NCBI GenBank assembly: GCA_003971905.1 | Contig: RSEE01000009.1 | Span: forward strand, 372,001-436,000 | Reading direction: 5' to 3' | Source: Moniliella sp. 'wahieum' | Lineage: Eukaryota | DNA: 64,000 bases | Shown here: positions 576 to 60,215 of the stretch, one piece after another | Layout of the letters: each line of letters starts with the position of its first letter | Numbering within the stretch: the stretch's first letter is position 1 | Translations under genes and position numbers: made by a program | The notes under the pieces: model-generated | Told to the model about the DNA's origin: nothing | Database searches by the model: none | What the model saw: only the letters and a program-made list of their open reading frames with translations

Positions 576-718
576 CATGATGCATGATGCATGATGCATG
601 AGATCTGGGACAGTTCTCACTTGAGTGTGATATTCCGTGTCGTGATGCTTGTGACATGTGACATGTGTCATGTGACGCCGCATGTCACATGTGACACACC
701 CTGGAGACTGAACGTTCA
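576..718. repeat. Heptamer palindrome arrays (ATGCAT-G)3, (ACATGT-G/C)n and TGAACGTTCA upstream of JAC1
   Basis: catgatgcatgatgcatgatgcatgagatct at 576-606; gtgacatgtgacatgtgtcatgtgac...tgtcacatgtgaca at 651-696; tgaacgttca at 709-718. Confidence 0.9.
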
Positions 719-815
719 AATTGAACGTGGGTGGCTTGGGCTGGGGCTACGCTGAGCAACATCAGCCTCGGTCGCAGGCTCGGCCGCGTTCAGCAAGACC
801 CGCATCCTCCCCGCC

Positions 816-1511
816 ATGCTGCCTTTCCGCCTCGCACGCCCGGCGCTGGCGCTGGAGGCGCGTGTAGCGCTGGTGCGCGCGCTGCATGCGACACTCCGCG
901 TCGGGACTCCCCCCGACTACTACCAGCTGCTGGCGCCCCACCTCGCCAACGCCTCGCTCGGCGCCAAATGGGCGGTGGACGCCGGGGCGCTCAAGGCAGC
1001 CTGGCGCCGCGCCCAGGCGCTCACCCACCCCGATCGCATGGTCAACGCCACCCCCGCCGAACAGCAGGCTGCAGCAGAGCGCTCAGCCGTTGTCAACCGA
1101 GCGTACGAAACACTACGGGACCCCCTGCCCCGCGCTACCTACCTTGTACGCACCCCTCTCCCCTCCCCCCACCCCCCGCATCACGCATTGCCTAACTCCT
1201 TTGCTCTCTTTTAGCTCGAGACCTACACTCCTGCCAACATTGACGAAGAGGCGCGTCTGACCGATCCGGTGCTGTTGGCGCATGTGTTCGAGTTGCAAGA
1301 GCAGTTGGAGGAGGCGGAGGACAAGGAAGCGTTCCAGGATGTCTTGGCAACCGCCCAACCGCCCCTGGCCGAGGCGGAACAGGCCATTGCCGACCAACTG
1401 GCCGCCGAGGCCCCCGATTGGGAGGTGATCAAGAGCCAAATCGCTAGCCTCAAGTACTTTGGCAACATTATCCAGCAAGCCCGCCAGGGCTTGAGTCAAT
1501 TCGACGAATAA
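816..1511 (+). CDS. JAC1: Mitochondrial Fe-S cluster co-chaperone Hsc20/HscB (J-domain protein); intron 1146-1214
   Basis: Arg/Ala/Leu-rich presequence, then a J-domain with THPD and 'SAVVNRAYETLRDPLPRATYL'. A GTACGC...CCTAAC...TTAG intron joins in frame to an HscB-like C-terminus (TDPVLLAHVFELQEQLEEA...LKYFGNI). Confidence 0.92.
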
Positions 1512-2469
1512 GGTCTCTCCTCCCCGCCCGCAACCAACGACTGAACGTTCTGTGTCTGTCTCTTTTCCTCTTTCCACTATAATGTGTCGTATATCCCTTC
1601 GGCTCTCTACACCACTATTGCATACTCGGCAACTAGTTACGGCCCCAGCTTGACTGGGGCCCGAACAAGGATGACATCCTAGCTCCCTCGGTAAACGGAG
1701 TCCAATTCAAATGAGACGCAAGTGCCACAGACTGCAGGGAGGGAAAAGGGGTGAGTTGTTGTTGCAGGAGGTAGAGCCTCCATCTGATTGCCTTGCCAGT
1801 TGCCTTGCCTCATGGGATATAGCAAGTCATGCTGCCCTCGACGAGCAGTATTATTGAGCCCTCTCGTCCGCGCGACATCCTTGTTCACGCTAGGCCATGA
1901 TCGTCGAAGCAAAGCTTGAACCACCACTGCATGATCGAGCCAGATCGAGGCGTTCAAAGGCGCCTCTGATGCCAAGTGGCGAGAAGCATACGGTCAGATA
2001 TGGTGGACGCAGTACGCGCATATCAAACAGGTCTTCTACCACCCACACACACGCCACCCAAGCTGGGTTTGGCTACAAGTGTTGGTGTTCCAAAACGATG
2101 GCACGATCTCATATCTCAACTCACTTTCAACACAACCGGACGAAATAGAACTGAGTACTGATTGCTGCGACCCCAGTATGAATCCAAGTAACGGGAAGCG
2201 AACATGGCCGTGACTCCATGGTATACCATTCCATTCGTCCCCTCCACCCCCTCCCCCGCCGGCCCAAAGAATGTTACAAATGAGAGTCGTACGTGCTTTA
2301 ATTCTTTTTCTCATAGGGAACGAGACGCGTAAATGGATTCAAGGGCACAGAGCGACACCAACACCAACCTGTACGGGCCGTGCGGAGCAGCAGGGCGCGG
2401 AAATCCGACATAATACCAGCCCCTTGAGGCGGCTGTCCAGGGTCAGGCCCGGTTATGCGCTGGCCACCG

Positions 2470-4339: not shown

Positions 4340-4799
4340 GGCGGTGGGGTGGTGGGGGGTGGTGGGTGGAGGGAGCCAAGCGACGGAGTTTTGACCCAAA
4401 GGCCAAGAAGAGGAAGATGCAAGAGGCGAAGAGGCGGTAGAAAGTGCTCGTCGGCGCCCCAAGGCAGAAGAGGCAATAATTGCTCCACCTGGCCCTGTCT
4501 ATCATGCATCAAATGCGCGGCTGGCTGCTATGGGGCGATGCCGGCCAGCGCGGCGGGGGCAGTGTGGCGGGTTGGGTCATGACCCCCTGGGGTGGAACGA
4601 GATTCTCACTTAAATTGCGGCTGCTTTTGAGAAGCTGACACTCTGGCAATCCGAGATCAGCGAAACGACGGGTGATACTTTCTTTCAACGGCCAGCGCCC
4701 AGCGGCCATCGCCTCTCCTTGCCACCGGCCCCCTGATGTATTCAATCGGGCCATCGCAGACGCACACCTCCCTACGAATCATTAAAAAACAATCATTAA

Positions 4800-5700
4800 T
4801 GAACGTTCAACGAACGCCACAGTGAGATGGGACGGTGGCAGAAACTCACAGGATGGGCTGCTATGCACCTCTGGATGTGCGGCGGCGATCATCACGCGCG
4901 TCACGCATCGACCCATCGATCACTATTACTGTCGTTGGAAGCAGTTCAAGTCCCTCACAGGCCTGAGCGCCTGAGCCTCAGGGCCTCAGGATCCCACTTG
5001 CGCGTAGCGCGTATCCCAGAGGTCTCTCTTTCAAACGCGAATGAAAACGGATGTCTCCTACAGAATATTGCCACAAGGAATGGCGGGTACTGAGGCTGAG
5101 GCCCTCTGAGGCGGCTTGAAGCTTGAGGCCCCTGAGGCCCAACCCTAACCCTGAGGCTCAGGCCTGAGGAGGCCAGATGTACCTCTCAATAGACGCATTT
5201 CGTCCATGTTGTTGATGAAGTGATCGACACATGGATAAACTGGAAGCTTTTCACTTATTGAAGCCTCCAGCTTGGCAGTGGTGCCACCGGGGGGGGGGGG
5301 GGGGTGCGGCGGGCGAAAACGATGTGCTTCGAAGAGGCGCATAACATTTCCTCTGGTCTCAGATCTCAGTTCGTATGGTAGACACGGTTGCTGCACCTTC
5401 TGATGCACAGACCGCACAGTGGCTCAAACGAAAGGTACCTACGATCCTAATATGTGGCCACATGTCCTCAGTATCCCACAGCTCGGCCTCGACCGGATTT
5501 CCTTAAGCTTAATTGGTGCTGCCTAATACGAGCGTCACTCGCGTCACTAGTTACTATAGTGCCTGTATAAATAGCCTTTTTTGCTCACAAAAGATGAGGG
5601 GGGCTACTGCACTCTCCACAGCAGAGGTGCGTCAGAGAGAAAACTGTTGTTGACCACCAGTGGTCTAGAGCCCATCGACCTTCAGTGACATGTGACACGT
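4800..5700. promoter_or_regulatory. Cluster of TGA/TCA-heptamer palindromes upstream of ERG1
   Basis: TGAACGTTCA 4800; CTGAG-rich tracts 4960-4990 and 5090-5170 (CTCAGGCCTGAG 5157-5168); CTTGAAGCTTGAGG 5115; TCTCAGATCTCAG 5357; GTGACATGTGAC 5685. Regulatory role inferred from position only. Confidence 0.55.
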
Positions 5701-11351: not shown

Positions 11352-11422
11352 TCTTGCTCTTGCTCTTGCTCTTGCTCTTGCTCTTGCTCTTGCTCTGCTC
11401 TTGCTCTTGCTCTTGCTTTTGC
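11352..11422. repeat. (TCTTGC)n hexanucleotide microsatellite, ~11 copies
   Basis: Read directly; lies just 3' of the GAF gene stop. Confidence 0.95.
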
Positions 11423-13381
11423 TAGTGCAGCCTTGGACCTCTTTTTCACTTTTTTCTCCCATGGTTCCCTACCTATTTTTTCTCTCCTACCTAGTACCTC
11501 CTCTACCTCTCCTACTTCCGCGATTCCCTACCTCATCACCTACGTCTCCCTTGTTCGGGATGGCTTATTTGCAACCCCAACGTTCGTTGTCCTAGAAGTA
11601 TGCTATGTGTTTTTGCTTTGAGGAGTTTTGCCTTACCATGTGCCACATGTTCTCCCATCATCTTTCATTCGTGCTTCCGTTCGTCCGCTGATGCAGATGT
11701 ACAGAGGGCCTTTCTCTGTGATCTCGGCCCCTGCAACGTACGAACGTGGGAAGGAAGAACGGAGAACGCGTAGGAGGTGGACTTTTGAGAGCGGCTTGAA
11801 TCTTGAGGCTCTCTCTCTCGTATCTATCTATCTGTCTATTCAGTCACACACTCTCAGCCTTAGACTGAGGCCCTCAGCTTCGCAGAAGGGACATCCAATG
11901 GTTGGCCATGCATTGGCATGTATCAGGGGGCCACCCAGCACGCGCCAAAAGCACGCAAGCAAAAGCAGGTAGTAGAGGAGGCAAAACACAGGCCAAAAGT
12001 AGCAGGTCGAGGACGATAGACTGAGGGGGCGAATGCCGCATATGTGGGCAGGGCACAAGGAGAAATATATAGATATACTGTGTACTCTGTGGGCCAGCAT
12101 CGCATCTGGAAGGAGCAGAGGGGGAGGTACAAGAAGAAAACACCCAACAGCGGGCGAAGAAAGTGGAGAAAGAGGGTTGTGTTTATTATATTACACTGTT
12201 TTTGCCGTCAGCGAGTACCTGAGTACGGGGGAGGTGCTATCCGAGCTACGGAGTGACCGAGGCATGGTGCCGGAAGGAGAAGTCACCCTCCTCCCACACT
12301 GGCCAGGCGCCAGCATCCGTATCGTTGTGCCTGTCGGGTGGCGCAACAGCAACCCGCCCCCCCGAGTCGAAGAGGTGGCGGCTCTGCACCACCCTCTCCA
12401 ATCCAGCGTTTGGTCAGCATCCGCACGTGAATCGAGCGCATATACCCAGATGCCGGACGCAAGCGTCAGGTCCCGACGGATGCCACACACCAGAGAGGTT
12501 CTCTGTGTTGAGAGAGAAGACGTGCTTGTGTGCGAGTAAAAAAGAGGACGTGCTGTTTGGCACACAAGCGCCGGGTCATCGAGGCCATCGACCACGATGA
12601 TCCGATGACCCCTTCTCCACACTGCCCGTGTCGCCCTCTCCGACCTTCAATAGGTTAATTAAGGGAGGCTTGCTGCAACTCAGACTGAGTACTCACTGTG
12701 TGCCATTGGAAGTACGGGCAGTTGCATTTCCTCAGCGATGAGCCTAACTTGATGAGCTTGATGGCGGGCGGGCGGGGGGTTCGCCCGAATCATCGATCAT
12801 CACGCCAATGACGAGCTTGAGATTAAAAAAGTGTCACATGTCAGCCGGTTGCGCAATTGCTTCGGGAGGACAAAAATGTGGGGCAAATCCCACCGGGGCG
12901 CCACCGGCGCCACCAGCCCAGTCTCGTTTCGCTATTCAATCTCTTCCACTGCCCACCGCGCCCCCTTCTCCCGTCACGGACATTGGTCCTGAAGCCTGAA
13001 GCTTGAAGCTTGGCTGGTGCACCGGCATCACCATCTTCGCCGCCGAGCACGCACAGCCAACAGAGTACTGATGCAAAACGAGCAGCAAGGTATATGATCC
13101 CCAGGAACAGTCTCAAAAAAAGATAACCAACCCTTGCGCCCATCGGATGTCCATTGGAGACACTCTCCTCTCCGTCGGCTACGGGCAAACCGTGGAGCGA
13201 GGGGGCTTGTTTCAGAACGAATTCCTCTCCTGTCGCCATATACAAAGCACCAGTGCTTATTTAACTGGAAGATCCACCTCTGACGCCGCGTGCTCTCCTT
13301 TTCCTTCGCATCCATCTTCTTCTTGCCCTCCTTCTCATCCTTCTGCCCTTCCAACCTACAACAGTCACGACACACTGTGGC

Positions 13382-16580: not shown

Positions 16581-18036
16581 TCTGTGCAGGACAGATGGAG
16601 GAAGGGAGATACGGTCATCGATTTTAACGACACCGCGTCGCTGTCCCCCCGCAGGGGCGGAAAGGGCGACTGACGTAAGCTGTCCTTCCCGTGTCAGATT
16701 TATAGTCGTCAACTAGGGTTGGCCCTTCGGAAGCAGCACTCAAAAGATGACGAGTGCATACGGCCAACTCGTGCTGCAGGCACTAAGTACTAACTTCCCT
16801 CCAAAAATGAGGTGGACTCAACTCAATGGTGGCAACAGTACAGAACTCGGCCGGGCAGAGGTGATCGAACAGATAGTCGAGCTGGAGGGCCTCCCCCGGC
16901 TGGGGCAAACAGTGTGTGGTAGCGCTTTTATAATGACGCAGCTTTGCTGACTGCGGCGCGTTTTGCTATATTTGGCGACCGGGATGCTGCTGGTGAGCCG
17001 TGTCTGCTCGGGCTGAGAATCGGTGGAAATAATATCGTGTTTCGGGAACGGATAAGCTATGGGGAGGTGTTAGTGGCGCCACTACTGCCTGCATGATGCA
17101 TGACATATGGCAAAAACGTTACCCATAGAGCTGAGTGGCTGGCTGAGCGCTGCCCTAAGACGCTCAGGCTGAGCAGGCCGCGAGCCGTTGTAGTAGTAAG
17201 GCAATTTACCCCATCCCATTTCTACCTTGGCTTTTGGCTTGTGGATAGTTCGAATGCGTTCAATGAAAACGCAATGAGTTGAATAGACTGAGTATCCTGA
17301 GATCTGGGAATTGGCTCCAGACACTTGGCGCCCAGGCGCACTTACGCTTGACTCAGTGATAGGAGGGGAGCCAGAGCGCCTGAACTGAGCGTAGTGAACG
17401 CAGCGCTCAGAATCGAGAATCAGTTCTGTCCGAGTATACCAAGGATCGATATCGATTCAGAGGCAGTAGGCAGTCGCCAGACCCCACACAAACAAGTGGA
17501 TGGCTGCGCTCTGATCTCAGATCTTACTGTAGCGTGTGACTAGGGTGACTCAGGGTCACTGGTCACTGGTCACTCTAGTCACCAGCTCAATAGGAAGTAC
17601 AGGAGGCTGTAGGGCGATACCGCTTGAAAGGGGAAAGAAGGGCCTCCGGATAGCAATATAGGGGGTTGGCACACACACATCATTGACGCAGAGCTATACA
17701 GCACTATGTGGAGAACTGATGCGCTGTCTGTACGCAGGGAGGGATTCAGGACCCTCTCTTGGTGCGCCTGCTCTCAGCCAATTGGTGTGGGGGTTTCCGA
17801 GACACATCGTCATCCGCGTCATCGGACCAATTTGCGGGGGTGCAACAGCCCACTATATACATAACCGATACCCCTCTCACTCACCTATCAAGCGAAGTGT
17901 TGTTTGATTGCACCCCGCCATTCGACTATTCAGCCAGTCAACTATTCGGCCATTTAGCCATTCAGCCAGCAATCCCTTCTTTTATCCAACCATCATCCAT
18001 CCCACCTTCATCTCCACACACAGCAGCATATCAGCA

Positions 18037-20115: not shown

Positions 20116-20699
20116 GATAGTTGTGTTGGTTCAAGAGGAAGTGAGGGGTGGAGAGGGGTTGGTTGGAGGTGATGAGAGTGGGGCGGTCGGTGCGGAAGAG
20201 GGGGTTATATATGCTTCCCCAGTTCGGTAGCTGGTCCCTGGGCCACCTGAAAGCGTACATTGCATGCACCCCAAGCTTCCAGCTTTCAACGGGGATTGGA
20301 GCAGGCTGTGCATCAGGGGAAGCAAGCATGCTCAGCGCTGCACAGGCCCAGTGTGTTGAGACTGTTGAAGTGCTTTGTGTCTTCTGACGCCATCGCCCGG
20401 GCGCACGGACGTCTGCATGGAGAACGAAGATGCGGTGAGGCGGGGGGATAGGATGGGTAGTGGAATGGCGACGGGATTGTGCATGTGATGCATGATGATC
20501 AATGAGATTCCGAGAGGCATCGTTGGGATGCCGGCTGGTGCCGTTCTGGGAAGACAAAGAAGGGGGAAGTAGACACGTAGTTGGATATCTGAGACCGTTG
20601 AGATCTGAGAGCTGCGATGCGATGCGTGCAGGCAGGCCACCGCGGAGCGCCCCAGGCGTGAGGGCAGTGAGTGCGTGAGCGATGAGCGAGTATCCGTTA

Positions 20700-22160
20700 C
20701 TGCCACTGTGACATGTGACTAGTCTGTATACTCTGTTGTCAGAGTAGCAGAAATGGCCGTGCCACCGCAGCCACAGCACGCACAGCAGCAGTTGGATGGT
20801 GCCGCCATGCGTGTTGGCTGTTCCCTTGGCTCGACATGGGCTCCAGCGGGTGGCGGGGACAAGGGCGCTGTGCGGATCGAACTCTGAGGCCTGAGCTCGT
20901 ACTCGGTTGTGTTTGGGGCGGCGTGGTAGGAACGGCGTGCGAGTGCACAGTCGTGGATCGCAGGCGATGGGACTGAGTGTGCTGAGTTCTGAAGGTACTG
21001 CGTAACTAGTAACTAGAACTGGGCTTGAGGACTGAGGCACTGAGGTACCGTGAGCAACGCGGTAACGAAGCGCCCAAAGGCAGATTGCACATCTCAGACC
21101 AGAGATGCATGACCGGTGACCAGAGATGCATTTGATGAATGGAGATCTGAGATTCTGAGATGTGAGATGGAGAGGCGAGACGTGCGCAACGAGGACAGCG
21201 CACCCATGCCTCTGACCAGAGCACAAATTGCGCACGGACGCCGAGTCTCGGCCGACCGCACAGGTCCCCTCGTCTGTCCCGTCTCCCAACAGCACAACGA
21301 CGCGTGACGTAGCGAGGAGACGAGGCGTGTCGTATGTGGACGCTCGAGAGTGCCATCCCACACTGCCTGCCACTCGTGCTCTCCTGCTCTGCGCCCGCAC
21401 AGGGGGGCAGCCGAGGCAGCTAGTGTTGCATGATGCGGTGACGCAAGGGATATGAGGTGACCGGTGACTGGTGGGCAGCAAGTCACTACCCACTAATAGC
21501 CACTAGCATTAGCACTGCCTCACAGCATGGCGTAGTGCATAGCCTCGCATCATGCATAGCGTGCTATCGCCGGCAGGTACGCCAGCCGAGCGCGAAGCAC
21601 CGCCTCAAACTCCACAGTATGTTAGCCTCATCACCGCCTCGCCCACCACTCCCCCTGTCCCGGTTCCATGCAGCCAACGCAGCCGTGGGCCCGTGCACCT
21701 GCTACTCCTGTACCTGCATGTGGCCCGTGCACCGCCAGCTCTGCGATCTGCCAGGTGGCATTAATGCGTGGTCTTCGAGCTTCACCGGTCACTAGCTTCA
21801 CTCTCACTGGTCGCATCGTCACATGTCCCAAGTGGGATCGAGTGGGTGAGTGGAGGGTGATCCATGACCGGTGATGAATCCGGTTATCGGTTATCGATTG
21901 ATTGGGGGCGTCGATAATAAGTGAAAGGTAAAAAAGAAACGATATGCAGTTGAATCACCGGTGAGCACCCGCCTCCCTGGCACTAGCCCACCGGGGATAT
22001 CGGGGATGCTCGCCCCCAAGCTCTTACGCTCTGAATCTTTCAAGCTTCAGGCCCCTCAGAGAAGCCTCAGATCCACCGATTGCAGTCTCATGCGCCACGT
22101 CACGTCACGCGTCACGCGTTTTACTGCGTATGAATAGCGTAACGCGTAACGCGCACTGCG
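20700..22160. repeat. Dispersed heptamer palindrome arrays upstream of the Gly-rich gene
   Basis: TGTGACATGTGACTAGT 20707; GTAACTAGTAACTAG 21002; ATGCATGACCGGTGACC 21105; GGTGACCGGTGACT 21456; CGTCACGCGTCACGCGT 22103; CGTAACGCGTAACGCG 22138. Confidence 0.85.
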
Positions 22161-25819: not shown

Positions 25820-27000
25820 CCCACATGTGACTGACGTGTGACATGTGACGCCCCGAATGTTGCACGAGTGCGGTCTGTCTCACGTGGCGGGCGCATATTT
25901 TTGTTGCGGGCTCTGACGCCGTGGAGGACAGGGAACAGGAAAACCAGATGAGCCGGGTGTTGCCTGTTACATGTTACGCAATATTAGGCAATGGCCGCAT
26001 GGACCCATCTCGAAGGCAGTGGCCGGGAGGAACCGGGGGGCGCGTATTGTTGCCTGGTGCTGTCGTCGACGAGGGACAGTGGCTCAGCTCAGTATAGTAC
26101 GTTCAGTCCGGTCAGCAGATGTCAAGGTCAGCGCTCACAGCAGGGGCCGGTCAGCTTGTCTTTGGCAATGTTGACAACGTTGACATGCGCGACAGTCACA
26201 TGTGACTGGCTGGGTGCACCCTATAAGAAAAAATTGAATCGCACGACTCTGGTCCTCGGTCCTCCTTCTGTGAATATACATGTGAATCAATCAACCTGAT
26301 CTGCCCCTGAGGCCTGGGAGGCCTCACGCGTCACACGTCACGCCCTCAACGTCACCGATCACTTCAGCCTCAGAGACTCGCCCGTTTCGAAAAGTAGAAA
26401 GTTTTGGGGAAGCTGCAAGAGCGGCACTGGTTAATGGCCCATCCATTGGGTCTGGGGAATGGGTGGTATACGCAGGGGGGGTGATAGTGAACGTGTTGAA
26501 GCTTGAACCTTGAGATGAGGTTTTCAGCGGAAGACAGGGATCGTCGATGGTCGATGGATGGAGACAGTGGGGTCAATGGGAGAATGGGCGATGGCGGAGA
26601 CTGTGTCAGGAGGGCTGACACGCTGAGACGCCCAGCAGATATGCACAGAGCCACAGTTGTGCTGATACTGAGGTGGAACATGTAAGTGAAGCTCTCACTC
26701 AGATCTCAGATCTCTCAGTGCTGATGCGGATGCTGAGGCACTGATTGCGGGGGCTGGCTGGCTGGTCACAGTGGCTATAGTGTTGACTGAGGCTGACGCG
26801 CTGACCCGTGACGCGTGACGGCGCTAATGCCCTTGAAGCTTGAAGCTTGATGTATCAAGTAACATGTAACAGTTCGTATAATCGCGGGACATCAGGAGGA
26901 GCTTCAAGCTTCATGCTTCAAGCTTCATGCCTTCAAGCTCTTCACAAGCTTCCGTGACTTCACGCTTCACCCCAAAGTTCAAGAACATCGACAGAGGTTG
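25820..27000. repeat. Dense heptamer palindrome arrays in the divergent region between PL14 and the next gene
   Basis: CAGTCACATGTGACTG 26193-26208; AGGCCTCACGCGTCA 26319; CTCAGATCTCAGATCT 26698; CGTGACGCGTGACG 26807; CTTGAAGCTTGAAGCTTGA 26832; GTAACATGTAAC 26859; AGCTTCAAGCTTCATGCTTCAAGCTTCATG 26900. Confidence 0.9.
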
Positions 27001-27123
27001 ACATAGGATGGAGGTCGCGATTCGTGTCGCCGTCCGAGGCGCTTTAATGTTTACCCACTCAGTGTACTGAACTCGGTGTGCTCAGGAGCTGAGTGTACTC
27101 TCGCAGTACTCCATATACTCACA

Positions 27124-29227
27124 ATGCCCAACAGCACTGCAGTACTCAATATTCACCGGACTCACCCTCCTATTATACCCTAGTGATGCGATCAACCCAT
27201 TCTTCCACATCGCGCTGGCCATGGCAGCAGTGCCTGTCGGTTCCTCGGAGTATGTTCCTGCGGCCGGTAGGTCAGCCAAACCCGAGACAGACATCAGCGC
27301 CTCTGTTGCCCCCGCCCCTCCTCCGGAACAGCCCGCAGCTGGGGACGTGCAAGACACAGGGGGTTACCACACTGCCCCTGTGCCAGGGGCAGACTGGCCT
27401 AAGAAATGGCCTGTTTGTCCAGCGGCAATTGATTATTTTGCCGAGTAAGTACCCCCTGCTTTTCTACATCCTTCTCTTCTGCTCTCCCTTTGTCTTCCCC
27501 GCCACTCCCACCGCCACCAACATTGACGCTGCCGCTACCACCCCATCATCCCCCATGAGCACAAGCCATCACACCTCCCCCACCTTCTCCGCCGCTGGCC
27601 TCCCCCGTCGAATGGGCGACAAATTTGCCACGCCCAGTCTTGCTGCCTACTCGTTGCGCGACAATGTCCTTCCGGCCCAGCCCTTGCGCCCACTCGCACC
27701 CGCCCGCGCAGTGCCACCACCTCTATGTTCCCCCTCCTTCGTTGCGGAACATTTACAATGCGGTCCCCCGCACTACGGCGACGACAACTTTGCACCCGAA
27801 CCGCAAACGCGGTAATACCTTCTCCATGACCTCAGCACCTTCTTCGTCTGCCTCTCGCACCACCTCGCCCCCGGCGGTGCGGCGCTCTTCATACCCACAC
27901 CCCGCTTCCCTCACCTTCGGACCTGTCCCGGTTTACTGCGGAGCGGTACCTCCAACCGACATCTACCGGGTCGGGGTTGTACCACAAGCCCCGGTCTCGC
28001 GCTGGATCACGGCAAGAGTCCGTATCCGAGATGAATCGAGCGACGCTCGACGACCGTGCCTCGTCCTCCGTTTCACCCACACCTCATTCACCCGTGTTGC
28101 CTACGATCCAAGGTACGAGGTATACCGTGTCGCAACCGGCCGCGCCACAATCCACCCCACCGCAAGAGATGGGCAACATCTTTTCTCGCATTGAGACCAT
28201 CACGCGGCCGGTGGAACTGACAATCCAAACGTTGCTCTTTCGTATCTTCCGCACACTCCAGGTCGAGTTTTTACGCTACCCTACCCAGCCCGACTCGCCC
28301 AAGCCGTCTGAACAAGCAGCGCCCGAAGCCGAATCCAAGTCCGCCCACCCCAACGCCCTCCCCCTCTGCTCCTGCTCCTCCTCAACCTTCAGGACCTTCG
28401 CCTCAAACGGCTACCAGTGGGTACATGTGTCTTCTCCTCCTTGGCCATATCCCGCCTCAAAACCAATTTGACGCTGCCTGGGTCGCGCGTGTGCAAGAGC
28501 GGATGCAAGCTGTCCACGCGCATCCCGAGCTGCTCAATGCGGAAGAAGGCGGGGTGAGCTCGGTACGCGATATTGAGGATATGTTCCAGATGTTGCGCGT
28601 GCTCGTTGGGTGCATCCGTCGTGTATCGGATGTGATGGTGCGCAGTGGAGTGTTGCGACCACCTGGAGCTGGAGCTGGAGCTGGCACAGTGACCGATGTC
28701 AATAACAACATTAAGTCCCAACGTACGTCTTTAGTTATCCCCCACCCCATGCGCTGTACTACCCATCTGTTGGACTAGTGTCTGTGCCTAACCCCACTCT
28801 CGCCTCTTTCATTTTCCCTTTGTCAGCTCCTACACCCGCTCTCCACCCATCCGACCCTACTGTGGCGGGGACGAATGGCACAGCAAGCCAAACCTCCTGT
28901 GACATGGGCTTTGCCCTGCCGCCCACGGACCCGAACCTCGAACTGATCGCACCAGAGATGGCGCATGCGATGCAATCCCTTGCTTCGTCTGGCGTGGCTG
29001 GACATCCACCGTTTGCCAGCACAGCCAACGCGGCCAGCGCGGAACCACCTTTGAAGCGCGCACGACCCATGCCGCCACACCCGCGTCAGTCGTCCCCGCA
29101 CGAAACACCGGTAGCGGAAGAAGAAGGGATGGATGGGGTCAACAAGACCCGCGCTTGGCTTTCCTCTCAAGCGGGCTACCAACCTGATGGAGCGAATTCG
29201 AAACGGCCTCTAGCACCGGAAGCATGA
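27124..29227 (+). CDS. Hypothetical Pro/Ser-rich protein (multi-exon, frameshifted; boundaries uncertain)
   Basis: Chain of coding-like ORFs (27093-27815, 27977-28471, 28425-28778, 28778-29227) with a helical segment FDAAWVARVQERMQAVH...IEDMFQMLRVLVGCIRRVSDVM. Probable intron ~28722-28778. No family recognised. Confidence 0.45.
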
Positions 29228-34967: not shown

Positions 34968-35008
34968 AGACAGACAGACAGACAGACTGACAGACAGACA
35001 GACAGACA
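34968..35008. repeat. (GACA)n tetranucleotide microsatellite
   Basis: agacagacagacagacagactgacagacagacagacagaca, upstream of the HSF-like ATG. Confidence 0.9.
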
Positions 35009-41100: not shown

Positions 41101-42078
41101 CGATAAACTTGATAAACACTGGACGTGCTTCACGCGACTGCAACGCAACCGTGTCATATGCCCCGTACTCAGGCTATCAGTAACATGTATGTCAGGAGAC
41201 GGAGATGGGGGAAAGGGTGCAGATGGATTGCATACATCTATGGACGCAGAGGAGGTATATGACCTCCTCAGGAAGGGGGCACAGTCGAGAGGTGGACACA
41301 GGATCTCCCAACTGATAGGAATCACGCCATAGTGCCCATACGGGCCTAGTGGCAAGGCCCCCTAGCACGGTGTGATTCTGACAATGTACAGGTCATCATG
41401 GGGACGGGCAGCAGTCAGCTAGTCAGGGGAGAAAAGTGGAGTTGACGTTGGGTTCCAGATCTGATAGAAAGAAGGTATTGTATCTAGAGAGACTCTCGCC
41501 CGGATCGATTTATCCGCGTCCACTTGTCCCATGTCATTATTTTTGGCAAGTCAATGGCGTCCCTTGTTCCATCTATGCCACCACCGGCCACCACTCTGGA
41601 ATAGTCCGAGTCATTAGCGTTGCTTGCTATGCCTCTGGCGCCTAGCAGCCCTTGAACGTAACCTGGTATACACGTGGTTGGTACTTGACACGTGTGCTTT
41701 CCAGACCCTTTCAGACCCTGGCGGCACGAGATGCCAGGAGATGCCGCGCTGTTTGGCCGCGTCTGGATCTGATGATCGATGATCCAATTACCCGGATGAT
41801 CGATGAAGCTTCCAGCTTAGCTTAGCGCTTACTTCCGCTTCAAGGCAGTGGATGGCAGTGGCCAGTGGGCGCTTGGAGGCGGCAGGGCAGAGGAGCAGGC
41901 AAGGAGGATGCGAGGATCCTGCTCGGGTTGTGGCGTTGCAACGTTGGAAGGGCAGGCCATCCGGGCATATCGCCTGCGTATGCCTTGCTGATCGCGCAGG
42001 GTGCGCCTGACCGGCTGACCTGAGCGCCTGAGCGCTCGTTCGTGCTCGCGCACTCACCAGCACTAGCTTTAGAGCCAC

Positions 42079-42136
42079 TGTGACATGTGACATGTGGCAT
42101 GTGACATGTGACATGTGACATGTGACATGTGACATG
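42079..42136. repeat. (TGTGACA)8 heptamer tandem array (one TGTGGCA variant)
   Basis: Read directly; the longest pure array of the ACATGT-G family in the window. Confidence 0.97.
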
Positions 42137-43205
42137 CTCACTAGCGGCCACCCAGCCCACCCAGCCCACCCACCTACCTGCTACGGCCTCCTACCACCTC
42201 CCGTTGACCATTCCCAGAATGCAACAGCGGTGCCAGGCGTGTCATGTGACGTGTGTGAAAAGACCGCTTGACCCCTGAGCGCCTCAGCGCCTCAGCGCCA
42301 ACGCTGACCGGTGACCGGTGTTTGTACATGAGGTGCCCCTGGTTTTTTCTTCCTTTTTCTCAAAAGGGTAACCGGTTACGCGCCGGCACCTGCCGGCACG
42401 CTTGGGTTGCATGTTACACGTTCAACGTATGCTAAACTTCGGCGATCCAAAGGGCCGAGGCACGGAGGGGCACGGCGCCAGTCTCTGCTCCGCTTTCCAG
42501 CTCAGCGCTCACTTCTTCTGCCGGCTTGCCTCACACAGTGCTGGTGGCGGGGTTGGGTGGGCCATCACATTGACGTTGCCCCAACTGGCAGGATGCAGTG
42601 CCTAGTTCTAGCTACCTAGCGGGTGCCACATGTTGCCACTGTCCAACTCGACCGCCCAACGTATCCAACACACCCTGTCCCGTTTCTTTTCCTGCTTGCC
42701 TCGTTCCCATGGCCCCTCCTTCGTCTTTGGGTTGCCATCCCATCCCATCTCAGACTCATCTCGGGCTCAGCGCTCATTGATCATCGAGCATTGCACAAGC
42801 CACATCCATGCAAAACTCTGCCGTAGCGCCAGAGCGCGCATTTTGTCTGCTCTCGGCATCCGGTCACACATACATTTGCCCACCCTGCTGCCCGCGTGGA
42901 TGCTCGCGTCTTTCAGGATGGATGATTGCGTTATTACCAACCCAGATCTGATTTCGGACTTCCGATGGGCCAGTCGCCATGCCAGGCACATGGCACTTCA
43001 ACTCAACCGTCGCGCCTCAGCGCCTCAGCTCAGCTTCAAGCTTCACGCTTCAACGTCTTTAGCCTTCAATAGTCCCCCCAACTTCAAGGTACACGCGAAA
43101 CCTCCAGCAAAGCTGGCGTGCCCTTTTTGGCTCCGTCTTGCCACCACCTTGTTCAGCCCCACAGCTCTCTCACCTCCGCCTCCCACTCCCTCCGTTCCCG
43201 TCGTC

Positions 43206-44939: not shown

Positions 44940-46041
44940 CGTCCGTCAAAGAAGGCTCCATACATCATGCATCCCGGTCGGCCTTTGTTTCTCCACATCA
45001 CTATATTTACCGGCATCCCGATGCCAGAGCCCACTCTCCCTATCTCCTTCAGTACATCAGTACTACTCCGCGTGTTACCCCCAATTCCTCCTCCTTTCAT
45101 CGACTTGTCGTTGGTTGATCGCATCTCTTCGCTGTTTTGCTGTTCCGTCACCCCCCATCCCATCTTTTTGTGCCTACTTTCCCCCACCCACCCCTTACAT
45201 GACTTGCCTGGGGAGGTCACTGCTTGTCTCTTCAATTCCTTATGCATACCTATAATGTCGCGAATTGTTGCTGTCGTGTACCACGACACGGATGCGTTCT
45301 TTTTCTTTCGTGCAAGTGACGAAGAGGACCGAGAGGACTCAGTTCAGTACTCACGAGGATCCCTTGGCCAGTACCACGGCGACGGACCCACGCAAATCCC
45401 TTCTTCCCCCGTGACCATCACCCTACCCGCGCCCATTCCCACTGTAGTGGCTGTGCCTCTTGCGTTTACCCGAAGAATATTGTGGTTGAGAGAGGTTGGG
45501 GTTAAGGATGGCTGTGAGAGGGGAAATGGTCTACAATACCTGAGGCCTGAGACCTGAGAGTCGACTTCCCCTTGGGTCTCCGCAGACAACATAATTCTTT
45601 CCAAGCAGCTACCTAGCTCAGGCGGAAGAGCGGTGGGCTCATAAGTTGTCGTGTGACCCACAGGTCGTCGGATCAAGACCGACGGTAGCTACTTTTTTCA
45701 CGTTCAACTCTGGCAATAATGGCTGTGCATGTCAAGCAGGTTTCCGGCTTGGCTTAGTCCGATCAGCTCATCGACTACCGTCTGGTTCCCTCCCAAATGG
45801 CACCATGTAATATCCTACCGCGGAACCTGTTCCAGCCTTTCTTCAGTCGCATAGACAGGTCTGGTCAGTTACTAGGTAAATCGTAAGCATCAGTAGCATT
45901 GTCAGGCCGTAGGCCAACGAACCCCGCCATCGAGCACCATGAACATCATGCATCAAGCATCAATCATCAAGCTTCAAAGGCCAAGTACAGCCGATGGGGA
46001 AGTCCAAGATAGAAGAGGTGCATACATACGGCACTTCGTAC

Positions 46042-46561
46042 TCACTTGGCCTGCTGGGCAAGGTAGTACTGGTAACCATAGTACGCAGCGAGATGCCAAT
46101 GGGAATGAACATTAGCAACGAATTCCTGTGGGGATGGAAATTGAAGGGTCATATCTTGATGCAGAGAGGAGGTGAGAGAAAGGGGACGAACGATCGCCTT
46201 TGCTTGGGAGCCGTGGCAACCGTGGGAGAGGGGCCGGACTTCTGTAAAGAGGAAACGGAAAAGAGAGATCAGTATCCCATACAGGTTTTGTTTGGTCTCC
46301 CAATATTTTCACAAAACGTACCGCCACCCATCCAGCTGGCCCACCTTCATCGGGTCTAGCAACTGCCGCGCATCATCCGAGTGGCCCACATCGTCGAATG
46401 CTTCGGTCGCGTCCTTCCAGCCTCGGCCAGCAGCACTCATCGCCCCCCGGGTGCTCGTCGATAAAGTCAGTGACATTGTACACATTTCCATGGATCGCCA
46501 TCCAACAGTCGGACGCCTTGTTGTGTTCCGCAAGGGACGATGCGGCAATCTTGGTGGCCAT
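46042..46561 (-). CDS. CYB5: Cytochrome b5 (tail-anchored); probable introns in the 3' half; frameshifted
   Basis: EHNKASDCWMAIHGNVYNVTDFIDEHPGG...DATEAFDDVGHSDDARQLL heme-binding motifs. The C-terminal TM segment ends YYGYQYYLAQQAK*. Confidence 0.93.
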
Positions 46562-46709
46562 ATTGGATGTACTGGGTGGTGGGGGAAAGAGCAAGGCAGC
46601 TGGGTCCCAGCGCGCGGCTAAGAGTCAAGCTTCAAGCTCAAGGCTAGTAGAACGGAACGGGGAATGCGCACTGCACCACACACGCTATCGGTGCAAGCAG
46701 TTGGTGATC

Positions 46710-47290
46710 AATGATGTATGATGCACGATGCATGATGCATGATGCTGCCGCGCAATTTCACTTGTGGGTTGGAAATGAGCACGGGGGAGGCTGGCGCCGT
46801 GCTGGGCCCATTAATTTCATTATTAATGGCTGCTGGTGACCGGCCGTGGCCGGTGAATGGTCGGGCAGGGGGAGGCAACCACAATCGGCCGATGACATGT
46901 GAGCCCCACCATTCTCACTTCTCACCACCCGCCTCACCCTCAGCGTTGTTGGAACTTCATGGTGGTTCAATACATTGGATGTTGGCGCGTACTGACGCGC
47001 GTGACGGCGTGACGTTAGTGGCATGTTCAAGTTGACCTTCCCCGTTGTCACGGTCCTCTTAGCTAATCAGGTAAATTTTCTCGACTCGATCTTACTAGTT
47101 ACTCTTCACCGATAATGTTTTCCTACCCGCTACCGGCGCTACCAGTGCATCATGTAAGTAACTTCCCTTGGTACTTGGTCTCACCGTATCGCCCGACCGC
47201 CATTGAGTTGTTTGAATATTGACTTCAATAGTGACTAGTGACTTTGAGCTTCAAGCTTCAGGTTTCAAGCTTCAAGCTCTTCAAGTTGCT
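46710..47290. repeat. Heptamer palindrome arrays between divergent CYB5 and HMG-box genes
   Basis: GATGCATGATGCATGATGC 46727; AGTGACTAGTGACT 47230; AGCTTCAAGCTTCA 47247; TTCAAGCTTCAAGCT 47264. Confidence 0.9.
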
Positions 47291-53930: not shown

Positions 53931-54918
53931 AGTGGCCAAGGAGAACGCCGGTGACGATGTCGAAGGGAGAGAGCAAGGTACGCTACCAGACCGCCCACCT
54001 ATCCACTTCCCACCAGAAAAAAAACGGGAGGAAATTTATCTTGTGCTTCCGCTCCCTGGGGGGATTCCGCTGATGCCACCCATATTACGTCAGGGTGACC
54101 GGTGACGTCAGGTGACGCCTGAGACGACTGAGGTGGGCACCCCACGGCTTTCAGCGCCGCCCCAAGTGGGCGCCAAGAGAGAACAGGTGGCTGGCTGTCT
54201 ATTCAGTTGAATATGAAGCAGCCTCGTTTCCCACACGTTCTACTACAAAGTTGCGGGGGATGGTGGGAACCATCCTATTTCTCCTGCCCTCTGTCGGCAG
54301 TTGGAGCCAGAAACCGCCCATGGGCGGATGGGGGTCTTTCTACACCACCCCCTTGCCTCATCGACACTGCAACCAGGTGTTCTCGTCAGGGCTGTTCTCC
54401 CCCTCCAGCCAGCGCCACTGCAATGCATTACATTTGATGTTCTGCTCACTTTAAAAAGCCGTTATGGCCGTGTGCACTGGCACCACAGTGTGCTATACAT
54501 TATCGGAGTTGAGCCAAGGGTCATCCCCTTGGCGTCACAGCGCCGTGCGACACACGGATCGTGTCATGACAGGGATGCACCTAGCCCGTTGTTATCGCGA
54601 TTGACTTGGCCCGCTCGCCTACTATGAAGATAAAGGCGGGGGGAACGAAAGCGGATAAGGCTAACAGTTGGCTCAGAGGGGCATCGACTCGGACACAAGA
54701 TCGCCCCCAAGCCCATCAATTACACCAAAGGAGAACCATATTTCCTTGTTGCGCGGTAGCTCGCGCCGTTCTCTTCCCTGCCTCTGACAAGCAATCCTGG
54801 TGAGCAACTACACGCTTTTAGATATCTTCCCGGAGGAGGAGGAGGCTCTACCTGCCTTCCTGCCTTCTGTAGACGAGCTGGTGGGTTTGGGAAATTTTCG
54901 GAAGAAGGAGGCAGTGAA

Positions 54919-56113: not shown

Positions 56114-56355
56114 GGTGGTGGCCGCCTCCTGTGGGGTACGCTGCTTGCCTGCATTGCCGCCCAAGTCTGAGTGTACTGAATCCTGAATCCAGCCTTCAAT
56201 ATCCAGTGCAACGTAACGATTGAAATTAACCCCACAGGGCTCGTGAGTTGAAATGTACAAAGTGCAAGGGGCAGACAGAGCATACGGTGGGCCGACGGCA
56301 GTGGCAGCGCGCGGTGCAAAGCAAGGACTCCACCACCTCTTCTATCCCAGCCAGC

Positions 56356-58396: not shown

Positions 58397-58717
58397 TCAT
58401 GGTGCAAATTGGCACCTGACTGCTGCCACCGAGGACAGTCTAATCATTTTCTGGTTTGGAAAGGTCACCGTGGAGGCCACCGAAAGCTGCCATCCGTCGC
58501 CACATAGAAATGATGAAGAGAGATTACGTCATCGCGGGCCCCAACCCAACCCCAATCTTAATCACCCACATGTGGGGTTCCAACCCACTCAGTACTCACC
58601 ACACCAATCGCCCTCGGTTACTTGCTATTTCGCACGCTGCTGGCCGGTCCACTCATTCCGTCCTTTCCTCGCTGCTGATCTCTGCCCCGAACCGGCCGCA
58701 TCAGACCAGTCCGCTGC

Positions 58718-59530
58718 ATGCCGCTCCCTGTACATTCGGTGCTATTCGACATTGGTGGCGTCGTCTTGGGAAGTCCCATCCACGGCGCTACCGATGTGGA
58801 GCGGCAACTAGGCCTTCCACCTGACTGGATCGGGGTCGCCATCGGTTCGCGTGGGGCCAGCGGTGTGTGGGCTCGATTGGAGCGCGGGGAACTGAGACTG
58901 CCCGAAGCATATGGCCTGTTGGAGGAAGAACTGAACGACGTTCCGTTCATCCGGGCTGCGTATCAAGCCTATCTGGCCCGTCGAGGGCAGACGCAGACGC
59001 AAGGGATCGCAGCAGAGACGTTTCAACCCGTGTACATCAACGCGCGCGAGCTGTAGGTAGCATGATGCGCGTGCAGGGACACCTAATCACGGATGCTGGG
59101 TGCGATCCGGCGTCTGCGCCAAGCTGGACTGCACGTTGCCGCCTTAACCAACACCTTCCTCCCACCTGCCAACGAGACTGAGGCGCAGCACATTGGCGTT
59201 TCGCTTGCCCGCACAGCCCAGCTGAAGAAGGAATTCGAGTGGTGGTTTGACTCGGCAGAGCTAGGCATGCGCAAGCCGGAAGAACGGTTCTACGCGCATG
59301 CGCTGCAAACACTCCAAGGTGATCCAGTGGACACGGTACTACTGGATGACATTGGAGCCAACTTGAAGCCTGCACGGCGGATGGGAATGCAGACCATCCT
59401 CGTCGACTCGTCTAACCTGACGGCGGCGCTAGCCAAGTTGGAAACGCTGACAGGCGTGAACCTGGGCTTGGACGAGGAGGATAACATACCTGTTCGGCCA
59501 ACGTCAGTCCCTCTGCAACTCGAGATTGTG
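58718..59530 (+). CDS. HAD-superfamily hydrolase (epoxide hydrolase N-terminal / ACAD10-like phosphatase); frameshifted; 3' end approximate
   Basis: VLFDIGGVVLGSP (motif I), VAALTNTF (II), SAELGMRKPEERFY (III) and VLLDDIGANLKPARRMGMQTILV (IV). Confidence 0.88.
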
Positions 59531-60215
59531 AGGCCGTGGCTAGCTCAAGCGCAGCTCCCTCGGTTCCCTCCCCGGGCATGCTTCCCAGAGGATCATATTT
59601 CTGGAAGGGTCGAAATATTCTCTAGCCTCTGTGCCCGTGTAAACAATGCAATTGACTCCCAACGCTGGCTTTCTACGCAACACGTAATGGGGGGGAGCAC
59701 ATGGCCAAGGCAAGGGGGCACAAGGGTGGTCGGATGCGGTGCAGTCATGCCATACACCAGCAAGGTGTGAGTGATGTAGGATGATCATGCATCAGATGCA
59801 CAGAGACGGGGAGCGCGCATGCGCGGCAGATGCTGACACTGCCCCCACGCGAGGTGTTGCTCTCTCTGTGGGTGCGGCAGGGGACGAGTGTGCAGCAGTG
59901 CTGCGCCGTGCTGCATCTGCATCACTCTCATGACCAAGTGGCTGGTGACCGGTGATGCAGATGCATGATGGCAGAGCACCGCAGAGCACCGTCCGTGCCT
60001 GCTTTTTTTCAGCGCTACACACGCTGTCTGATGCACATTCAGGCGGTCAGCTTCAGGCCCCTCAGGCCTCGTGCCGGCCCCAGGACTTCAAGCCCTAGGA
60101 CGTCAACCTCAATTCAACACATCGAGGCTGGCCGACACGCCAGCTGCCCCTCCCCCTCCCACCAGCACCCCCAATACCCCCACCCGCGTCCCCGTCCATA
60201 CCCGCCTCCCCTTCC

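Follow-up and report, generated by a model that had tools for sequence, protein, structure and literature searches.

Heptamer sites and their neighbouring genes

The 64-kb window, by which we mean the whole stretch of DNA that was analysed and to which all counts refer, comes from a basidiomycete to which none of the proteins searched was closely related (best identity 64% among the 120 matches listed). Along this window, the DNA near genes carries arrays of 7-bp repeats and shorter 10-mers in which two T-N-A trinucleotides (TNA) enclose a 4-bp palindromic core, and these 10-mers are called sites here. All 12 of the cores that the original prediction had located in the window were found where it had placed them.

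The first cluster (576..718) was located upstream of JAC1, which runs on the + strand from about 816, with six 10-mers in 575 nt. It contains the arrays (CATGATG)x3.7 at 576-601 and (TGTGACA)x3.9 at 650-676, as well as a perfect 10-bp palindrome, TGAACGTTCA, at 709-718. Upstream of ERG1 on the - strand, nine 10-mers at 4502..5695 had the cores TGCA, TTAA, ACGT, AGCT, GGCC, GATC, AGCT, CTAG, and CATG. The cluster upstream of a UNC-93-like gene on the + strand (12686..13012) had the cores GTAC, TCGA, CATG, and AGCT and included a TGAAGCT array at 12990-13012. For MGM101 on the - strand, the upstream sites (16784..17574) had the cores GTAC, TGCA, and GATC, and a non-palindromic TCA array, (GGTCACT)x3, was present at 17554-17574.

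A long non-coding stretch at 20486..22153 contained 13 10-mers, in which TGACCGGTGA or variants of it occurred five times, together with a 21-bp duplication (three heptads) around 21110 and the ACGCGTC and ACGCGTA arrays at 22103-22153. The densest cluster of the window (25839..27155, 14 10-mers) was located between PL14 on the - strand and the next + strand gene, and its neighbouring arrays differed in core (GATC, CGCG, AGCT, CATG, and AGCT). Upstream of a + strand gene with a likely start near 43224, another 13 10-mers were found at 41773..43053, including the longest array, (TGTGACA)x8.3 at 42079-42136, and TGACCGG x2.3 at 42305-42320. Two clusters upstream of the CYB5/HMG-box genes on the + strand (45344-45977 and 46625-47278; overall 45344..47278) had the cores GTAC, GGCC, TGCA, AGCT, CATG, CTAG, and ATAT, and a TGA pair around a 14-nt near-palindrome was observed at 46837-46856. 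Single units were present as well: GGTGACCGGTGAC at 54094..54106, about 200 nt upstream of NOP58 on the - strand, illustrates a 13-nt run that stands alone, and ACTCAGTACTCA (58587), ATCATGCATCA (59784), and GGTGACCGGTGA (59944), all within 58587..59955, flank the HAD hydrolase gene (+ strand) on both sides.

Period-7 arrays and the elementary 10-mer

Period 7 accounted for 35 of the 138 rows returned by Tandem Repeats Finder (TRF) for the window. There were 43 exact period-7 arrays of at least two copies, compared to 4.6 ± 2.3 expected from 20 order-3 Markov simulations of the window. The repeated unit was a palindrome plus one base in 23 of these 43 arrays (0.6 ± 0.9 expected from the order-3 simulations), and the outer pair of the palindrome was A..T in all 23, no other pair being seen in the window. 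TGA and TCA recurred at a distance of 7 at 5.0x and 4.0x expectation, which was in agreement with the predicted recurrence of these trinucleotides every 7 bp. The idea that the spacer base is mostly G or C failed as an intrinsic rule, because the TTA and TAA versions were enriched as much (5.6x and 4.4x), TGA and TCA being three times commoner here. The reported lack of all-AT cores held for the arrays, where none was found, but not for the 10-mers, where six of 94 had such cores (ATAT 2, TATA 2, TTAA 2, and AATT 0).

These arrays might be an ordinary microsatellite that needs no special enzyme, in which self-complementary heptamers slip via hairpins, expand, and later shrink to single units. 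The 58-nt array had a predicted fold of -17.6 kcal/mol (z -2.8) and a 19-nt AGCT array reached z -2.3, which is consistent with slippage, and so is the rarity of all-AT cores, expected if pairing strength matters. Arrays of other periods were also in excess (period 6, 61 vs 13.4 expected; period 8, 16 vs 0.8), and (TSACATG)x3 occurred in at least 120 metagenome stretches, suggesting that simple repeats of this type also form elsewhere. However, the isolated units had a predicted fold of 0 kcal/mol, and thermodynamics favours C..G or G..C closing pairs, not the A..T seen in all 23 palindromic arrays. The metagenome stretches with CATG arrays also lacked the multi-core grammar: the 120 stretches listed, which cover 360 kb, had 36 sites with other cores, a density of 0.1 per kb compared to about 1.0 per kb here. 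With the results on specificity and phase given below, we consider slippage quite unlikely as the source of the units. Among the matches listed, the metagenome stretches L005 and L007 were AT-rich with sites at about chance level (an estimate), and L030 contained four sites, a weak signal.

The basic element of the pattern is the 10-mer of TNA, a 4-bp palindrome, and TNA, and not the array. TNA-N4-TNA with any N4 occurred 197 times in the window, compared to 95.3 ± 9.3 expected. With a palindromic N4 it occurred 94 times, compared to 6.5 ± 2.2 (order 3) or 14.3 ± 3.2 (order 5), which establishes the enrichment over background that the original prediction had called for. The twelve 5ʹ segments contained 71 of these sites, and 300 dinucleotide shuffles of the same segments gave 2.2 ± 1.5 with a maximum of 8. 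When all 64 trinucleotides were placed on both sides of a 4-bp palindrome, TNA alone was enriched (TGA, 40 vs 0.8 expected; TCA, 28 vs 0.8; TTA, 5 vs 0.1; TAA, 4 vs 0.1), a specificity that slippage does not predict. When the palindromic filler between pairs of TGA, TCA, TTA, or TAA was 2 or 6 bases long, no enrichment was seen in the window, and longer palindromic fillers between TNA were found there only as the arrays and one 14-nt case. The fixed letters of the unit were T and A only, and 15 of the 16 possible 4-bp palindromes were used across the 94 sites. The 71 runs in which the two TNA had the same middle base contained 14 different palindromes, whose first base was C in 28, A in 17, G in 15, and T in 11.

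The middle base was the same in both TNA at 77 of the 94 sites (1.5 ± 1.2 expected), complementary at 13 (1.4 expected), and neither at 4. The same-N majority indicates that the two TNA are a direct repeat, and the 7-bp phasing is the result of duplication, not of independent half-sites, which need no same N.

Isolated TNA-core-TNA 10-mers made up 68 of the 94 sites, compared to a single isolated core-TNA-core in the window. As this phase is fixed, the 10-mers are not random remnants of long arrays, and decay of long arrays as their source is ruled out; slippage would be expected to leave an arbitrary end phase. The commonest length among the 68 single-site runs was 12 bases (21 runs), which is below the two units that a slipped repeat would comprise, and a length of exactly 14 was found in nine. 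The direct repeat was thus mostly 5 bases, and the period was always 7.

The core was linked to the flanking bases. In the left flank, period-7 identity fell from 0.72 at the first base and 0.63 at the second to 0.31 at the third; the first and second bases of the right flank had 0.60 and 0.50, with a background of 0.27. Of 61 P-TNA..P-TNA repeats, 44 had a 2-base filler complementary to P, compared to 17 of 332 non-TNA controls. Full left and full right flank matches were mildly exclusive (8 sites with both vs 12.4 expected; chi-square about 5), which matches neither pure model cleanly. When one-mismatch sites were compared with the ideal 14-mer, 29 mismatches fell in the four outer positions and nine in the ten inner positions. 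Same-N sites with one broken core pair numbered 38, compared to 11 expected, and perfect ones numbered 77, compared to 2 expected; broken-pair cores, at about a third the number of perfect ones, fit what is expected for drifting scars. TNA-centred pseudo-palindromic 7-mers outside the sites numbered 184, a mild excess, where the expectation of 160 ± 11 covers all such 7-mers in the window.

Distribution of the sites relative to genes

None of the 94 sites fell within the 9.9 kb of Pfam-confirmed reading frames, which was consistent with the predicted scarcity in coding DNA. Site density was 4.8 per kb in the 5ʹ segments (71 sites in 14.8 kb) and 0.3 per kb in the 3ʹ segments (one site in 3.35 kb), so that the promoter bias was upheld, with gene orientations partly inferred. 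The statement that nearly every upstream region is marked was true in part: 8 of the 12 inferred 5ʹ segments had 3 to 13 sites each, but the other four, those of HSF, TAY1, NOP58, and TANGO2/GT4, had one or none. As proxies for coding DNA, reading frames of at least 100 codons were of no use, covering 86% of the window, and a GC3 filter and a self-trained coding model were weak. Because the coding model missed one confirmed ERG1 exon, orientations outside the Pfam-confirmed genes are tentative. By eye, no orientation was apparent in the site list, either in phase relative to genes or in the choice between TGA and TCA.

The 5ʹ bias is what would be seen if the units were cis-acting promoter elements under selection, with a factor or a DNA-structural property reading TNA direct repeats 7 bp apart, the palindromic spacer serving shape and duplication only creating the copies. 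The dense clusters in some promoters (up to 14 sites in 1.3 kb) and the covariation of x with x' and y with y' at arbitrary bases point the same way, and purifying selection on the 10-mer could have kept its ten inner positions cleaner than the outer ones. On the other hand, T and A alone are fixed and nearly every palindromic core is used, leaving no constant recognition sequence; a loopless 6-bp palindrome cannot fold; cores with one broken pair are common relative to perfect ones; four of the 12 5ʹ segments do without the units almost entirely; and, by eye, the site list shows no orientation. We regard selection on the units as unlikely to explain them, and a promoter code read by a protein is unlikely because the cores are arbitrary. 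The original prediction had offered both a promoter or chromatin code, read by a factor or through hairpin shape, and a lineage-specific mutational process in promoter DNA. The latter fits the anatomy, namely the same-N TNA, the varied cores, the complementarity of core and flank, and the drift, but nothing specific spoke for the former.

Three functional readings were rejected. Stop codons in all frames would leave the palindrome unexplained, and isolated units cover two frames only; the cores are too varied for bZIP, heat-shock-element, or E-box sites; and start-stop mini reading frames (ATG TGA) could be provided by the CATG core only. That the sites are an assembly, polishing, or sequencing artefact is hardly credible, since the units are many and diverse, spare the coding DNA that was confirmed, are unequally distributed between 5ʹ and 3ʹ segments, and show graded decay.

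A candidate break-and-repair process and its known relatives

We tentatively favour, at somewhat less than an even chance, the reading that the sites are scars left by staggered breaks at TNA or by a transposase-type process with the same specificity, and that arrays grew from them later. A lineage-specific mutational process would work on T-N-A trinucleotides in accessible promoter DNA, and each event would add exactly 7 bp, consisting of a second TNA copy and four bases that form the palindrome. The second TNA copy may arise as it does when a cut is staggered or when a transposon duplicates its target site, and one half of the palindrome would in most cases complement the dinucleotide next to the TNA. 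The product, TNA-xyy'x'-TNA, would usually be visible as a 12- or 13-base run, y'x'TNAxyy'x'TNA. Homogeneous arrays might then result from repeated events at the new TNA and from replication slippage once several units exist, and patches of arrays with different cores from events at neighbouring TNA. The most likely agent would be an enzyme of transposase type that targets TNA, as PIF/Harbinger (PHIS) elements do, or another TNA-specific nuclease, and the break would be repaired by short templated synthesis. Targeting of open DNA, together with selection against 7-bp insertions elsewhere, may account for the promoter bias.

Some results count against the scar reading. No simple cut-and-repair scheme was derived that gives a 5-base direct copy together with a 2-base inverted copy, and none of the 320 reading frames scanned in the window, out of 335 with a length of 90 aa or more, contained a transposase domain. 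If the footprint came from the ends of an element, its core would be expected to have a single fixed sequence or very few, not 14. The four 5ʹ segments with one site or none also count against it, and all of the evidence comes from this single window. Two scans of the window for TIR elements or MITEs flanked by TNA or short duplications returned only chance-level pairs.

Other routes to the same unit were considered and rejected. Had a 7-mer already present been duplicated in tandem, or had the duplicated target been 7 bp long, all runs would be at least 14 bases, and the mode was 12. The reverse arrangement, in which the target duplication is the palindrome and the footprint is TNA, was represented by only one isolated case. 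The two-fold symmetric hairpin schemes that were considered, and quasi-palindrome template switching, predict complementary N, which was seen at 13 sites compared to 77 with the same N.

In its boldest form, the proposal is that a basidiomycete lineage possesses an undescribed T-N-A-specific break-and-repair or mobile-element activity. This activity would place exact 7-bp insertions, in which the TNA copy is joined by a 4-bp palindrome templated from the flank, roughly once per kilobase of open promoter DNA. Promoter tandem repeats, and with them built-in variation in expression, would be created throughout the genome, and the inserted units may since have taken on a structural role in promoters. 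We give this full version a fairly low probability. If the scar reading is true, the promoters of this fungus contain stereotyped 7-bp insertions at a density of roughly one per kilobase and preserve a legible history of a sequence-specific mutational process aimed at regulatory DNA. The signature, a TNA duplication plus a flank-derived palindrome, would be clean enough to search for in other genomes and would provide a concrete target for finding the enzyme or transposon responsible. Promoter tandem repeats tune expression, and the process would be a candidate mechanism for making them. If the units are selected instead, the promoter element that they form would owe its identity to symmetry and not to a particular sequence, an unusual case.

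Searches of the literature returned no account of TNA-palindrome-TNA units or of a heptamer grammar in fungal promoters, and the heptamer repeats in Ustilago mentioned in the original prediction were not found there either.

Among known systems, the PIF target is 9 bp, and mPing favours gene-proximal DNA, as the sites here do. PIF/Harbinger (PHIS) elements, including NuwaII and mPing, resemble the sites in that they duplicate 3 bp, TNA, of which the middle base is free, and the 77 same-N sites match the TNA/TWA target-site duplication that characterizes these elements. According to PMC4482050, PHIS transposons of the NuwaII group target C|TNA|G and are present in two basidiomycetes, so that occurrence in this phylum is a further likeness; the free middle base of the mPing duplication is described in PMC4561436. 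An extended target preference of PIF/Harbinger elements is reported in PMC2836001, and an extended symmetric target around TNA may be a further likeness: the flanking bases here continue the symmetry but vary from site to site. Excision of mPing, a member of the PIF/Harbinger family, is reported as precise in 109 of 110 events (PMC2836001), whereas the sites here keep both TNA and four bases. PHIS TIRs mostly begin with A or G, or with GG (PMC4482050), whereas the first core base here was most often C (28 of 71). The 4-bp palindrome has no counterpart in PHIS elements, and neither a transposase in the scanned frames of the window nor a TIR pair above chance was detected.

An example of a Tc1 footprint is TA-CA-TG-TA. 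Footprints of mariner/Stowaway elements retain both duplications together with element-end bases (PMC4561436). Tc1/mariner and Stowaway footprints thus share with the sites a short direct repeat around a very short palindrome and a stereotyped length. In the Tc1/mariner case, the repeat is TA and the element-end bases are fixed, whereas the repeat here is TNA with 14 or 15 cores that track the flanks; no element was found in the window.

Ac/Ds footprints are palindromes built from flanking DNA (PMC4561436), and the footprints of hAT (Ac/Ds), MULE, and Transib elements and the P-nucleotide hairpins of V(D)J recombination resemble the sites in an inverted copy of about two bases of adjacent host DNA (PMC4561436 and PMC5499845). 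The hAT, MULE, and Transib palindromes are centred on the boundary of element and flank and vary in length, whereas the inverted copy here lies 3 bases off, across the TNA. The duplication is 8-9 bp for hAT and MULE and 5 bp for Transib, compared to 3 to 5 bases here, with always 7 bp added.

Unstable tandem repeats in yeast promoters were reportedly described by Vinces et al. in 2009. Like the units in this window, they are short tandem repeats concentrated in promoter DNA and a likely source of expression variation; the yeast repeats are said to be mostly AT-rich and of many unit types, whereas those here follow one strict grammar of TNA and palindrome and occur mostly as single units.

Seven-base arrays and the ten-base unit

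A period of 7 accounted for 35 of the 138 TRF rows in the window. Exact period-7 arrays with at least two copies numbered 43, compared to 4.6 ± 2.3 in order-3 Markov simulations, and in 23 of these the unit was a 6-bp palindrome plus one base (0.6 ± 0.9 expected). All 23 palindromes were of the type A-N4-T, with no C..G, G..C or T..A case. The heptamer grammar of the original prediction thus stood well above background, and each core that it named was located in the window, coordinates included. At a distance of 7, TGA recurred 5.0 times, TCA 4.0 times, TTA 5.6 times and TAA 4.4 times as often as expected, and at a distance of 14 TGA and TCA recurred at about 2.4 times expectation. The base between palindromes had been described as mostly G/C; TGA and TCA do recur, but TTA and TAA are enriched alike, and since TGA and TCA are three times commoner in the window DNA than TTA and TAA, the G/C spacer is mostly a matter of supply.

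The basic unit, rather than the array, is a 10-mer composed of TNA, a 4-bp palindrome (the core) and TNA. TNA-N4-TNA was found 197 times, compared to about 95 expected, and the form with palindromic N4 94 times, compared to 6.5 ± 2.2 (order 3) or 14.3 ± 3.2 (order 5). All unit statistics describe one 64-kb window of one genome. When W-palindrome-W was counted for all 64 trinucleotides W with fillers of 2, 4 and 6 bases, only TGA (40 vs 0.8 expected), TCA (28 vs 0.8), TTA (5 vs 0.1) and TAA (4 vs 0.1) were enriched, and solely with the 4-base palindromic filler, the 2- and 6-base fillers being at background. Longer palindromic fillers between TNA were confined to arrays and a single 14-nt case, a near-palindrome (CCGGCC-GT-GGCCGG) inside a TGA pair at 46837–46856.

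The two middle bases of the TNA pair were the same in 77 of the 94 sites (1.5 expected), complementary in 13 (1.4) and otherwise different in 4 (2.5), indicating that TNA is mostly repeated directly and that perfect 10-bp palindromes form a minor class. Hairpin or template-switch routes with two-fold symmetry were rejected, as they would give complementary middle bases, the minority here. Most sites (68 of 94) were isolated, with the core repeated in neither adjoining 4-mer, and a palindrome-TNA-palindrome figure, shifted and lacking the outer TNA, occurred once, indicating that the phase is fixed and that random decay of long arrays does not account for the units. A long array had a predicted fold of −17.6 kcal/mol (z −2.8). 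Simple hairpin-driven slippage was nevertheless rejected, as no stable fold was predicted for isolated 16- and 17-mers, the stronger C..G closing pairs were never seen and the phase is fixed.

Several variants accompany these units. The 17-mer TGA-CGCC-TGA-GGCG-TGA at 23787–23803 is palindromic throughout save the three middle G of TGA, showing the symmetry-except-at-N rule on a larger scale. The period-8 arrays CCTCAGCG (42274–42299), CCTGAGCG (42019–42035) and GCGCCTCA (43012–43029), with TCA/TGA, GCGC and an extra C, are a rarer 8-bp version of the theme. At 21099–21131 the 11-mer CCAGAGATGCA flanks TGACCGGTGA on both sides, a 21-bp, three-heptad duplication around 21110, indicating that duplication of several units at once is another way in which arrays grow. 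Outside the TNA-palindrome grammar lie (TCTTGC)x12.2 at 11352–11423, (CAGA)x10.8 at 34967–35009 and a run of 16 G at 5289–5304.

Flanks and cores of the units

In 71 maximal runs of same-N units (both TNA with one middle base), period-7 identity mostly reached 1–2 bases past the 10-mer and then ended. Extensions of 0, 1, 2, 3, 4 and 6 bases were seen on the left in 19, 14, 26, 6, 5 and 1 runs, and extensions of 0 to 6 bases on the right in 29, 17, 13, 1, 5, 1 and 5 runs, respectively. The length of single-site runs (n = 68) peaked at 12 (21 runs) and was exactly 14 in 9; a 7-bp duplication of existing sequence was rejected, as most runs fall below 14 bases. Period-7 identity was 0.72, 0.63 and 0.31 at the first three bases to the left and, to the right, 0.60 at the first base and 0.50 at the second (background 0.27), giving the full figure y'x'-TNA-xy-y'x'-TNA-xy, where x and y are core bases and x' and y' their complements. 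Its inner ten positions are almost always perfect, while the outer four match about two-thirds of the time. The ideal 14-mer was matched perfectly by 15 windows and with a single mismatch by 38 (0.4 expected), that mismatch falling in the four outer positions in 29 and in the ten inner positions in 9. When a 5-mer made of TNA and the two preceding bases was repeated at period 7, the two intervening bases were the complement of those preceding bases in 44 of 61 cases, compared to 17 of 332 for 5-mers without TNA.

The cores in the 71 runs were AGCT (13), CATG (12), TGCA and CCGG (7 each), GTAC, CGCG and GCGC (5 each), CTAG (4), GATC and TCGA (3 each), ACGT, GGCC and ATAT (2 each) and TATA (1); all-AT cores were rare yet present (6 of 94 sites). 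Pairs within 100 bp shared a core in 7 of 29 cases, compared to 2.3 with shuffled labels (p about 0.008). A conventional binding site was rejected because T and A are the sole constants, and the proposed reading of the grammar as a promoter code found no support for the same reason.

Position relative to genes

The window has a G+C content of 58% and is gene-dense, with genes broken into short reading frames. Pfam matches to these frames placed, on the + strand, JAC1 (756–1508), an UNC-93-like gene (from 13776), an HMG-box gene (47952–48233), a GT4 glycosyltransferase (56247–57278) and a HAD hydrolase (59087–59767), and on the − strand ERG1 (2741–4277), MGM101 (15742–16614), a PL14 lyase (24684–25787), HSF (33381–34208), a Myb/TAY1-like gene (37505–38239), NOP58 (52480–53894) and TANGO2 (55105–56027). 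The MGM101 frame matched basidiomycete proteins of several classes at no more than 64% identity among the 120 matches listed, indicating a basidiomycete without a close relative among the proteins searched.

The scarcity of units in coding DNA, earlier judged by eye, was confirmed: none of the 94 sites lay within the 9.9 kb of Pfam-confirmed frames. Twelve 5ʹ segments (14.8 kb) held 71 sites, or 4.8 per kb, compared to one site, or 0.3 per kb, in five 3ʹ segments (3.35 kb); this contrast is supported rather than proven, because outside the genes confirmed by Pfam the orientations were assigned by a self-trained coding model that performed weakly. In 300 dinucleotide shuffles, the twelve 5ʹ segments yielded 2.2 ± 1.5 sites. 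A chance or composition effect was thus ruled out by the site count (94 vs 6.5), the TNA-only specificity and the segment shuffles (71 vs 2.2). Units had been claimed for nearly every upstream region, which applied to eight 5ʹ segments with 13 (PL14/next gene), 13 (20131–22554), 11, 10, 9, 6, 4 and 3 sites, but not to those of HSF, TAY1, NOP58 and TANGO2/GT4, with 0 or 1 each. Inspected by eye, the site list did not favor TGA over TCA, or the reverse, in relation to the direction of genes.

The 483-codon frame at 42612–44060 seemingly contains two sites. Its first ~200 codons (42612–43223) are unlike protein and the likely start is a Met near 43224, downstream of both sites, so ORF-based annotation would misplace two heptamer arrays inside the gene. 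Other repeats also lie near or in genes. A perfect (TCCTCT)x17.8 pyrimidine tract at 32694–32800, between a − strand gene (31661–32362) and the HSF 3ʹ end, is plausibly a CT-rich promoter tract. Nested 30/57/87-bp GCC/GGC-rich repeats at 19545–19924, in two overlapping opposite-strand frames of ambiguous strand in the coding model, are probably the Gly-rich repeat protein of the original prediction. Tandem repeats of 30 bp (10 codons) at 62898–63074 and 63807–63872 are in a long + strand frame (61720–63501), which has the top coding score in the window and no Pfam family match.

Origin of the units and known systems

The fixed phase, the TNA specificity and the link between core and flank favor the other reading put forward originally, a lineage-specific mutational process in promoters, with the mechanism resolved in part. 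We consider a mutational origin probable. As for lineage, metagenome contigs with three TSACATG units (at least 120 stretches, 360 kb) did not contain the multi-core grammar, with other-core sites numbering 36 (0.1 per kb, compared to about 1.0 here). Such arrays can thus arise elsewhere as plain repeats, and within this small sample the grammar looks lineage-specific.

The TNA repeat, the addition of exactly 7 bases, the flank-complement palindrome and the 5ʹ restriction point to a staggered event made at TNA by an enzyme. Such an enzyme would act in accessible 5ʹ DNA, and repair by very short templated fill would produce a short direct repeat of the symmetric trinucleotide and a palindrome with one half complementary to the adjacent host bases. 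That the units are scars of a TNA-specific nuclease or transposase is a tentative proposal, which we hold somewhat short of even. Possibly they are footprints left by elements with end bases similar to their preferred target flank. This accounts both for the perfect 10-mer inside and for the partial match of the outer bases, but 14 cores would require many element families. Neither a transposase, in the 320 of 335 window reading frames of at least 90 aa that were scanned, nor a TIR element, in the window, was found, which counts against a transposon. A flank-templated event, with a 5-base direct copy and a 2-base inverted copy, accounts for the arbitrary choice of core as well as for the 12-base mode, and its repetition could build homogeneous arrays; however, we could not derive a simple known chemistry that yields this pattern. 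Full left- and right-flank matches were mildly exclusive (8 joint sites vs 12.4 expected), which leans towards the flank-templated event.

Same-N sites with a perfect core numbered 77 (2 expected), with one core pair broken 38 (11 expected) and with both broken 19 (16 expected). The single-hit excess (about 27 vs 75) suggests, if neutral, about 6–9% divergence per site since origin. Drifting scars fit this excess, and weak selection is compatible too.

A full-text literature search found no description of TNA-palindrome-TNA units or a heptamer grammar in fungal promoters, nor of the Ustilago heptamer repeats mentioned in the original prediction, and there is a fair chance that the activity behind the units is new. 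Among known systems, PHIS transposons create target duplications of 3 bp; C|TNA|G is the target of the NuwaII group, which is recorded in two basidiomycetes (PMC4482050), and this TNA duplication is comparable to the TNA repeat of the units. PHIS TIRs mostly begin with A or G (PMC4482050), but 28 of the 71 runs have C as the first core base, which counts against the transposon version. For mPing, the middle base of the duplication is free and the overhangs left by excision derive from the duplication (PMC4561436). PIF/Harbinger elements, to which mPing belongs, prefer an extended target, and mPing excision was precise in 109 of 110 events (PMC2836001), which counts against the transposon version. 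In mariner/Stowaway footprints, both duplications are retained together with bases from the element ends, and those of Ac/Ds are palindromes built from flanking DNA (PMC4561436). By likeness, the units resemble such transposon footprints and promoter tandem repeats.
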